This document shows positions 5,501 to 6,726 of a DNA stretch of 12,904 nucleotides, piece by piece (position 1 is the stretch's first letter; each line of letters begins with the position of its first letter). The position numbers were made by a program, and so were the translations under genes. The notes under the pieces were generated by a model that worked only from the letters and a program-made list of their open reading frames with translations, did no database searches and had not been told where the DNA came from. Location: the NCBI GenBank assembly GCA_038893995.1, contig JAWAQK010000060.1, forward strand, positions 1 to 12,904, given 5' to 3'. This stretch comes from Candidatus Thorarchaeota archaeon (GTDB lineage: Archaea; Asgardarchaeota; Thorarchaeia; Thorarchaeales; Thorarchaeaceae).

Positions 5501-5893
5501 TTGCACCACCAGAATATAGCAGACATTCCACTACTCATCAGAGAGTTGCTAAAGGACCTCTGTAACAGGTCGCCCATACTGGGTGCCGCAATACTACCTG
5601 TCGAGGGATTACCATTCGTGAGCTACTTTCAGACGAACATCGACGATGCAGCAGTGGCAGTCCTTGTTGCAAGCGCACAGGCTGCCGGTGAGCAGACAGT
5701 CAAGGAGCTGAGACAGGGTAGCCTGAAGTCTATCCTGGTGGAGGGTACAGCGGGGTTCACACTCATTCTGTCCATCGCGGAGGATTACCTCCTCGTAGTG
5801 ACTGCTCCTGATAATGCCAAGATCGGACTGGTACTGAATGATGCCAGGAGGGCAGGACGCGAGGCAGCACGACTGCTGCAGGAGTTGTCCTGA
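5501..5893 (+). CDS. Roadblock/LAMTOR2 (LC7, MglB-like) domain protein
   Basis: GAAILPVEGLPFVS, then helix AVAVLVAS...GEQTVKELRQGSLKSILVEG..G, then LLVVT...AKIGLV. This is the canonical roadblock pattern, 130 aa. Confidence 0.93.
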   Translation: MHHQNIADIPLLIRELLKDLCNRSPILGAAILPVEGLPFVSYFQTNIDDAAVAVLVASAQAAGEQTVKELRQGSLKSILVEGTAGFTLILSIAEDYLLVVTAPDNAKIGLVLNDARRAGREAARLLQELS

Positions 5894-6726
5894 TGGTGGG
5901 TCAACTACCAGAATACCCGTTCAGACTTCATCCCTGTTGGTCGGACTGCAGGAAGAACGTGTGGCACAGGATTCACCTCCCTGTGGCGGGATACTGTAAC
6001 GTACGCTGCAGATACTGTGATGGTATATCGGGTAACTCTTGTCACGTATCGGTGCCCGGCCGTGCGTCAAGAGTCATGACTCCCGAGGATGCTGTTCACA
6101 GAGTTCATGACGAGCTCGAGGTGAATAGTGCACTCCGTATCATCGCAGTGTCCGGACCTGGGGAGCCACTGGCGTGTCCTGCCACAATCGACGTCTTCAG
6201 GATGCTGCAGGGACTGAGGCCTGACATCGAATTCTGTCTCAGTACCAACGGATTGCTCCTCGCCGACATGTCGGCACAGCTTGCCGACCTTGGCATCAGG
6301 ACGGTCTCAGTCACCGTGAATGGAATCACCCCAGAAACACTATCACTGCTATATCGTTATGCCACGATCGAGGGAAGAGTCTTGAAGGGACTGGAGATGG
6401 GAGAACAGATAGCCAGGCGTCAGTCAGAGGGAATATGGAGTGCGAAGAGACAAGGTATGTATGTCAAGGTCAACACCGTCCTGGTCCCCCGTGTCAACGA
6501 CCACGAGATTGAGCTCCTGGCAGCAGAGATCTCGAGGGCGGGTGCGGACCTCCACAACATTGTTCCACTCGTTCCCAACGCCGAGTTCAGTCGCATGAGT
6601 AGGCCTTCCCAATCAGACATCGATAGGGCCAGGCAGATCTCAGGGAAGTACCTGAGACAGTTCCAACACTGTGCCCAGTGCAGGAGTGACGTAGTGGGAG
6701 TCCCCGGTGACGACAGAGTCCTCTAG
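5893..6726 (+). CDS. nifB: NifB-like radical SAM protein (single-domain, no NifX domain)
   Basis: HPC (C15), RIHLPVA (H28), CxxxCxxC (C35/39/42), SGPGEPL, CLSTNG (C115), SVTVN, VKVNTVLVPRVND, HNIVPL and C-terminal CAQCRSDVVG (C260/263). These are the NifB signature motifs, but ExRP is degenerate. The ATG overlaps the roadblock stop (TGATG). A role in FeMo-co synthesis is not supported by the context. Confidence 0.85.
   Translation: MVGQLPEYPFRLHPCWSDCRKNVWHRIHLPVAGYCNVRCRYCDGISGNSCHVSVPGRASRVMTPEDAVHRVHDELEVNSALRIIAVSGPGEPLACPATIDVFRMLQGLRPDIEFCLSTNGLLLADMSAQLADLGIRTVSVTVNGITPETLSLLYRYATIEGRVLKGLEMGEQIARRQSEGIWSAKRQGMYVKVNTVLVPRVNDHEIELLAAEISRAGADLHNIVPLVPNAEFSRMSRPSQSDIDRARQISGKYLRQFQHCAQCRSDVVGVPGDDRVL

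Follow-up and report, generated by a model that had tools for sequence, protein, structure and literature searches.

The window, taken here as the whole 12,904-nucleotide stretch of contig JAWAQK010000060.1 (Candidatus Thorarchaeota archaeon, GCA_038893995.1), contains a nifB-like gene at positions 5893 to 6726 of the forward strand. The open reading frame and every residue quoted in the first-pass annotation were found in place. The gene encodes a single-domain radical SAM enzyme of 277 amino acids without a NifX fusion (hereafter the Thor protein). The gene was also recovered from another sample of this hot-spring study, on a contig that covers it with a single synonymous difference and neither indel nor frameshift. 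The host genome comprises 2.33 Mb and is 91% complete. Around the nifB-like gene, profile matches of the window ORFs revealed no nif gene, as had been claimed.

A roadblock/LC7 gene (PF03259; 5501 to 5893, forward strand) lies directly upstream, and its stop overlaps the nifB-like start. It is preceded by p333 (4413 to 5414, forward strand), a PD-(D/E)xK nuclease-like protein with His 112, 121 and 125 invariant in 53/53 loci, which was not found in four other Asgard genomes and is present in the sister family. On the reverse strand, positions 6723 to 7568 and 7609 to 8511 encode tandem paralogues of 38% identity with C-terminal winged-helix/PqqD-like matches, conserved across Thorarchaeaceae; in p281 of this pair, C219 and C274 are invariant or near-invariant. 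These are followed by a DUF2797 protein (8504 to 9778, reverse strand) with eight cysteines invariant in 33/33 Thorarchaeaceae loci, a possible metal site. At the part of the block corresponding to window positions 3530 to 3674, 34 to 40 relatives carry two ORFs (approximately 511 and 381 amino acids; their motifs suggest topoisomerase VI B and A) that are absent from the window.

The best family match of the Thor protein was NifB (TIGR01290, E 9e-57), at 192.7 bits over model positions 11 to 280 of 441 and below the curated cut-off of 343.65. This cut-off appears to be biased against short NifBs, because the model reaches beyond the single domain. The nearest named relatives were nearly all Ca. 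Thorarchaeota proteins (42-52% identity) and the best solved relatives were archaeal NifB PDB entries (E 2e-58). A structure predicted from 66 relatives (pLDDT 90.9) was compared with solved proteins using Foldseek and matched holo NifB 7BI7 with a TM score of 0.90, an rmsd of 1.7 Å and an E value of 3e-30; the next radical SAM family, PFL activase, reached a TM score of 0.60. The model has the NifB fold, including the N- and C-terminal stretches that hold the K-clusters. The closest solved systems are the single-domain archaeal NifBs of Methanothermobacter thermautotrophicus (7BI7/7JMB) and Methanothrix thermoacetophila (6Y1X), which share 38% structural-alignment identity, the same length class and the lack of a NifX domain. 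In trees built without a non-NifB outgroup, the Thorarchaeaceae sequences formed one clade among the NifBs (support 100/100 and 100/99 in two trees), and together with the fold this speaks against placement in another radical SAM family, which had been raised as a counter-indication. The clade sits on a long stem branch (0.54-0.76), and its sister group was not resolved in three tree runs.

The catalytic ligands were located on the forward strand as follows. The HPC motif (residues 13-15; 5929 to 5937) supplies C15, the bridging K-cluster ligand equivalent to C18 of MthNifB, and H28 (5974 to 5976) is the K1 ligand equivalent to H31; both are invariant in 57/57 Thorarchaeaceae sequences. C35, C39 and C42 form the CxxxCxxC motif of the SAM-binding [4Fe-4S] cluster (5995 to 6018). 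C115 (6235 to 6237), a K1 ligand, is conserved in 119/119 sequences and in 57/57 from Thorarchaeaceae. K192-x-N194 (6466 to 6474) is kept at each position in 119/119, with N194 in 57/57 and K192 in 56/57 Thorarchaeaceae. The K2 ligands C260 and C263, invariant in 57/57, lie in the C-terminal motif C260-x2-C263-R-S-D-V-V-G (6670 to 6699). In MthNifB the K-clusters are held by C18, H31, C115, C260 and C263, T141 contacts the ribose, and K192 and N194 hold the belt sulfide proposed as acceptor of the SAM methyl group (PMC8179604). The residues named there as strictly conserved match those invariant, or in the case of K192 nearly so, in Thorarchaeaceae, and the ligands and belt-sulfide residues in the structural definition of NifB drawn from the same source correspond to C15, H28, C115, C260, C263, K192 and N194. 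Relative to archaeal NifB, the RS triad, K-cluster ligands, loop cysteine, K192/N194 and T141 are all kept in the Thor protein; it differs in a His-containing loop in place of the Glu, in SGPG for AGPG and in DVVG for DAxG, and its host has no nitrogenase-fold or MCR-activation protein that was found.

The plug loop reads CHVSVPG (residues 50-56; 6040 to 6060). C50 is kept in 102/119 sequences, the Glu is lost and His51 is conserved in 110/119. In MthNifB the loop residues C52 and E53 bind the RS and K1 clusters transiently, and replacement of the loop Cys or Glu in Methanothrix NifB abolished or greatly reduced NifB-co production (PMC8179604). The ExRP Glu is the fourth ligand of K1 when this cluster is loaded (E53 in MthNifB, PMC8179604; E65 in Methanothrix, PMC10114646). 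The claim that all cluster ligands are kept therefore held for the five K-cluster ligands, the loop Cys and K192/N194, but failed for the loop Glu. A Glu three residues before the loop Pro was present in 0/57 Thorarchaeaceae sequences vs 126/147 other NifBs, and the ExRP motif, rightly described as altered, in 0/57 vs 119/147. Of the plug loop with Cys and Glu that belongs to the structural definition (PMC8179604), the Cys is present, the Glu is missing and a His is conserved. The loop was poorly modelled (pLDDT below 50 at residues 47-52).

Other deviations accompany the loop. The HPC and Cx3Cx2C motifs of the published NifB fingerprint (PMC5715403) are present, while AGPG, TxTxN and Cx2CRxDAxG are replaced by SGPG (residue 87), SVTVN (residue 139) and DVVG. 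All are conservative changes that leave the Cys, Arg, Asp and Gly in place. Since it fails the strict fingerprint at four motifs, the Thor protein is not filed as canonical NifB; the authors of the fingerprint note that their filter may be too strict (PMC5715403), and its ExRP element is also failed by MCR-associated Helarchaeales NifBs. Family-wide, the Ala of DAxG (A267) is Val in 56/57 Thorarchaeaceae and Ala in 142/148 others. T141 and N143, sites nearly invariant elsewhere, are each Ser in 48/57 Thorarchaeaceae, and both are retained in the present protein. Conserved Arg20 (104/119) and Trp24 (108/119) were gained near the K1 cap. A His in the short stretch after HPC was found in 100/148 other NifBs vs 9/57 Thorarchaeaceae; this is presumably the once-proposed K2 ligand that is missing from the ligand list of the re-refined structure. 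Except for the loop Glu, the Thor protein fits the structural definition of NifB, and it most likely works like NifB.

Glu-less loops were also found elsewhere. One occurs in a NifB adjoining nitrogenase-like genes (P0132). A His four residues before the loop Pro, as in the Thor protein, together with the lack of Glu, was seen in both NifBs of the helarchaeon Hel_GB_A, in a third Hel-like genome and in Asgard family f16. The Helarchaeales protein differs from the Thor protein in keeping AGPG and DA, and its host has MCR, McrC and Mmp7. No supported grouping with the Thor clade was obtained for the Hel_GB_A or the f16 NifBs, so the His common to them all may have arisen by convergence. No NifB type other than that with the Glu-less His loop was found in Hel_GB_A, whose genome contains McrA, McrC and Mmp7; because McrC and Mmp7 bind L-clusters (PMC12176620), this loop is probably compatible with L-cluster synthesis.

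The nifB-like gene was found in 63/71 Thorarchaeaceae genomes, with each of the 15 genera represented and the small 2.3 Mb host genome among them; outside the family, 7/229 Asgard genomes have it. A known client family was detected in 4/5 of the non-Thor NifB-positive Asgard genomes tested, so NifB in these archaea normally accompanies a client. Among NifB-positive Asgard archaea outside the family, nflD/H adjoin nifB in G087, G077 and G242, PF00148 lies elsewhere in the genome in G104, and MCR is present in Hel. Family f16 is a second orphan case, with no Mmp14 or McrA found and, in G098, no McrC or PF00148 either. Its His-loop nifB genes (L137:9641-10441 in G098; L140:9005-9805 in G106) lie near a sepSecS-frhB-like-hdrA-mvhDGA cluster.

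To our knowledge, the proteins that take up the NifB carbide cluster are of two kinds only, nitrogenase-fold proteins and McrC/Mmp7. The nitrogenase fold (PF00148) was found in 0/86 Thorarchaeaceae genomes, 23 of them of high quality, with the positive controls detected. In the 91%-complete host genome, no nitrogenase-fold gene, NifH, McrA, McrC or Mmp7 was found, and a nif or nitrogenase-like cluster elsewhere in the genome, which the first-pass annotation had asked to be sought, was found neither there nor in the 86 family genomes. The McrC/Mmp7 family gave a match above cut-off in 0/61 Thorarchaeaceae genomes; weak McrC-family matches (E 0.008-0.05) in 5/61 genomes were unrelated proteins, e.g. 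Rad50-like proteins and ABC ATPases. Unfiltered phmmer searches of the host genome with Asgard McrC, Mmp7, Mmp17 and NflD returned nothing under E 0.2. CODH/ACS was not found in the host genome by tblastn with CdhA, C, D and E of Hel_GB_A, even though this genome retains NifB and an Mtr remnant. Two generic PF02579 genes elsewhere in the genome were rejected as client markers, as such NifX-like genes are present in most NifB-less Asgard archaea too; they sit in a generic DUF134/Mrp-type cluster before hdrA. The suggestion that the enzyme serves a non-nitrogenase client is supported by these searches, in which neither nitrogenase-fold proteins nor MCR/McrC/Mmp7 were found, with the carbide chemistry itself deduced from homology. 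Nitrogenase has been attributed to Thorarchaeota in reports cited in the review PMC6646929, and the count of 0/86 for PF00148 conflicts with these. Annotations of that kind may go back to the NifB-like gene or to MinD/Mrp ATPases.

NifB without nitrogenase has already been published for methanogens (bioRxiv 10.1101/2023.10.20.563283; PMC12176620), where it is essential. The non-diazotrophic methanogen enzyme resembles the Thor protein in lacking a nitrogenase and lying away from nif genes; it differs in its likely client, McrC/Mmp7, a family above cut-off in 0/61 Thorarchaeaceae, and McrA was not found in the host. The same work describes an MCR activation complex bearing L-clusters and notes NifB in Asgard archaea in its tree (PMC12176620). 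MarB, NflB and IsrB (PMC13474568) are likewise NifB homologues serving enzymes without nitrogen fixation, but they adjoin NifHDK-like genes. In the literature searched, no NifB lineage with neither client class was found, and no paper joined NifB and Thorarchaeota.

A candidate client was exposed by subtracting a sister-family genome (G025; 96% complete) from the host genome and by sharing with loci around NifB in other taxa. It is a soluble Mtr remnant, mtrH'-mtrA-mtrH-mmp14, outside the window (G000:C1:74109-78127; family copies L310-L321). The subtraction used 1.96 of about 2.16 Mb (91%) of G025, so its list contains false absences; NifB and Mmp14 were not found in G025 by whole-genome search. 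Orthologues of the cluster from another Thorarchaeaceae genome pass the TIGR01114 and TIGR03285 cut-offs. MtrAH with marker m26 (DUF2114/Mmp14) has been described as a methanogenesis remnant of Thorarchaeia (PMC9635834), the same lineage and the same operon as found here; neither that paper nor its supplement mentions NifB. In Thorarchaeota nifB and mmp14 are unlinked. An Mmp2-like gene that adjoins nifB in Methanohalophilus, and was not found in G025, was rejected as a partner because it is too widespread (196/301 Asgard genomes, including 74/78 of one NifB-less family).

Mmp14 was present in 70/71 Thorarchaeaceae genomes vs 1/229 other Asgard genomes, almost the pattern of NifB. Of 12 genomes picked by Mmp14, 11 have NifB, the exception being a Thor-like MAG of 1.7 Mb. 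Across 301 Bathyarchaeia sampled from the whole class, NifB was found in 5/5 genomes with Mmp14 vs 12/296 without; a Fisher test on this table gave a p value of 3e-7, an overstatement given that related genomes are not independent samples. Of the five Mmp14-positive Bathyarchaeia, four were known before this sample was drawn and two have MCR; the 12 scored positive for NifB and negative for Mmp14 are counter-cases. Two Hecatellales MAGs, incomplete at 0.8 and 1.1 Mb, contained Mmp14 and NifB, with no McrA, McrC/Mmp7 or PF00148 found, and mtrA-H was seen in the fetched locus of one of them. Hecatellales are a published non-methanogenic Mtr carrier (PMC9635834). In a 2.8 Mb Methanomethylicia MAG, in which McrA, McrC/Mmp7 and PF00148 were not found, nifB is directly convergent on an mtr-mmp14 operon. 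Further counter-cases are G033 (80% complete), where Mmp14 is present and NifB was not found, and family f16, where the reverse holds. The co-retention of NifB and Mmp14 is a new observation of this analysis; no published link between orphan NifB and Mtr/Mmp14 was found in the literature searched. About three lineages underlie the lead, each of methanogen ancestry; Thorarchaeaceae represent one of these, and the co-occurrence counts are not independent. Inheritance from methanogen ancestors could by itself account for the presence of both genes.

The fold predicted for Mmp14 is that of the ASKHA superfamily (model pLDDT 90.9). Compared with the ATPase subunit of benzoyl-CoA reductase, the model gave a Z score of 17.1, tied with kinases and FtsA. 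No solved relative was found by sequence. Two C-terminal cysteines are invariant in 134/134 Mmp14 sequences and two more are mostly conserved; two cysteines in an ASKHA protein would equally fit an ordinary [4Fe-4S] or Zn site. Set against ATP-dependent reductive activases (RACo/RamA and HgdC/Bcr types), which pair an ASKHA fold and an Fe-S site with a neighbouring corrinoid protein, Mmp14 was seen to have the fold, the cysteines and a position beside mtrA/mtrH. In Hecatella orcuttiae (L421:10001-13611), mmp14 is separated from the mtr operon and immediately precedes a RACo corrinoid-activator gene. The host genome has two RACo/RamA-type activase candidates by motif, a point against the Mmp14 lead. 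An HgdC-type activase lies with dehydratase genes on its contig C13.

The reading favoured here, with a moderate degree of confidence, is that the Thor protein would be an 8Fe carbide-cluster synthase serving a third client that is neither nitrogenase nor MCR. By analogy with NifB biochemistry, C35, C39 and C42 would load the SAM-binding [4Fe-4S] cluster, and C15, H28 and C115 together with C260 and C263 would load the two substrate clusters. These would fuse into the 8Fe K-cluster. A SAM methyl group would then be transferred to the belt sulfide held by K192/N194 and converted to the interstitial carbide by a second SAM-derived radical, yielding a product like the L-cluster, [8Fe-8/9S-C]. The part of the Glu as a transient ligand from the loop would fall to His51.

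As for the recipient, delivery to the mtrH'-mtrA-mtrH-mmp14 remnant, with the cluster handed over for ATP-driven re-reduction of the cobamide, is speculative and considered unlikely as it stands. Much as L-clusters drive the Ni(I) activation of MCR, Mmp14 might draw on ATP and a cluster of low potential to bring the MtrA cobamide back to its reduced state. Such a supply would explain the retention of NifB in Thorarchaeota and in MCR-less Bathyarchaeia after the loss of methanogenesis, and would hold also in Mtr-bearing methanogens. That Mmp14 (DUF2114) constitutes a third class of carbide-containing 8Fe-cluster protein, supplied by NifB, is a doubtful proposal. A different protein as recipient of the carbide cluster is a tentative possibility, given somewhat more weight.

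Repurposed chemistry, in which the three clusters are kept and no carbide cluster is exported, is rather unlikely, though it is the best of the rival explanations. The enzyme may stop at an 8Fe-8S K-type cluster, or may employ its auxiliary clusters in radical methyl, methylene or sulfur transfer to another substrate. The loss of the loop Glu in 57/57, the family-wide shifts at the ribose-binding positions T141, N143 and A267, the gain of Arg20 and Trp24, the long stem branch and the lack of any known client family among those searched all point this way, and dN/dS of the gene (0.10-0.26; 13 close pairs with estimable dS) is about twice that of its neighbours, mostly 0.04-0.19. IsrB, a divergent NifB homologue of unclear role (PMC13474568), provides a precedent. 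Nevertheless, the enzyme has its full set of K-cluster ligands as well as K192/N194 for the carbide step, T141 and N143 are kept in this protein, and Glu-less loops occur in NifBs beside nitrogenase-like genes and in MCR-bearing Helarchaeales.

It is improbable that the gene belongs to a sensor, in which the roadblock protein and the convergent longin-wHTH pair would read the Fe-S or SAM state of the NifB-like protein. Roadblock and nifB are adjacent in 54 loci with a spacing of mostly -8 to +15 nt, and the order p333-roadblock-nifB against the convergent longin-like pair was seen in 20/20 loci. However, the whole 13 kb region is syntenic across Thorarchaeaceae, including CDC48-like, protease and AmmeMemoRadiSam genes, so this adjacency is not special, and the host genome has 11 roadblock-like genes. 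In G025, p333, the roadblock gene and a longin-like gene follow one another as they do here, but nifB is lacking from its place among them; these neighbours are therefore independent of NifB, and the link of roadblock to nifB is probably one of position. Full catalytic conservation would also exceed the need of a sensor. As clients, the roadblock and longin-like genes were rejected because both persist without nifB in the sister family, and p333 was rejected as a nuclease-like protein.

It is very improbable that the gene is a decaying, functionless leftover of ancestral methanogenesis. Thorarchaeia have been described with methanogenesis remnants (PMC9635834), and the sister family has this block without the gene. 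Against this, the matches listed were open frames without internal stops, the gene persists throughout the genera of the family, its metal ligands are invariant at only 42-52% overall identity, and its dN/dS shows that it is under purifying selection. That this is an ordinary nifB, dispersed in the genome of a diazotroph or of an organism with MCR, and that its client genes escaped assembly at 91% completeness, might be argued from the cited Thorarchaeota nitrogenase reports. The idea is largely refuted by the searches for PF00148, NifH, McrA, McrC/Mmp7 and NflD given above, and is barely credible.

A whole archaeal family thus keeps the NifB catalytic core while neither kind of known client was found, which suggests a third client or repurposed NifB chemistry. 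Either would inform what NifB does apart from nitrogenase and how the L-cluster originated. The count of 0/86 for PF00148 casts doubt on reported nitrogen fixation in Thorarchaeota. The natural Glu-to-His loop variant offers a direct probe of the plug-loop mechanism, and the co-retention with Mtr/Mmp14 provides a candidate that is testable in culturable methanogens.
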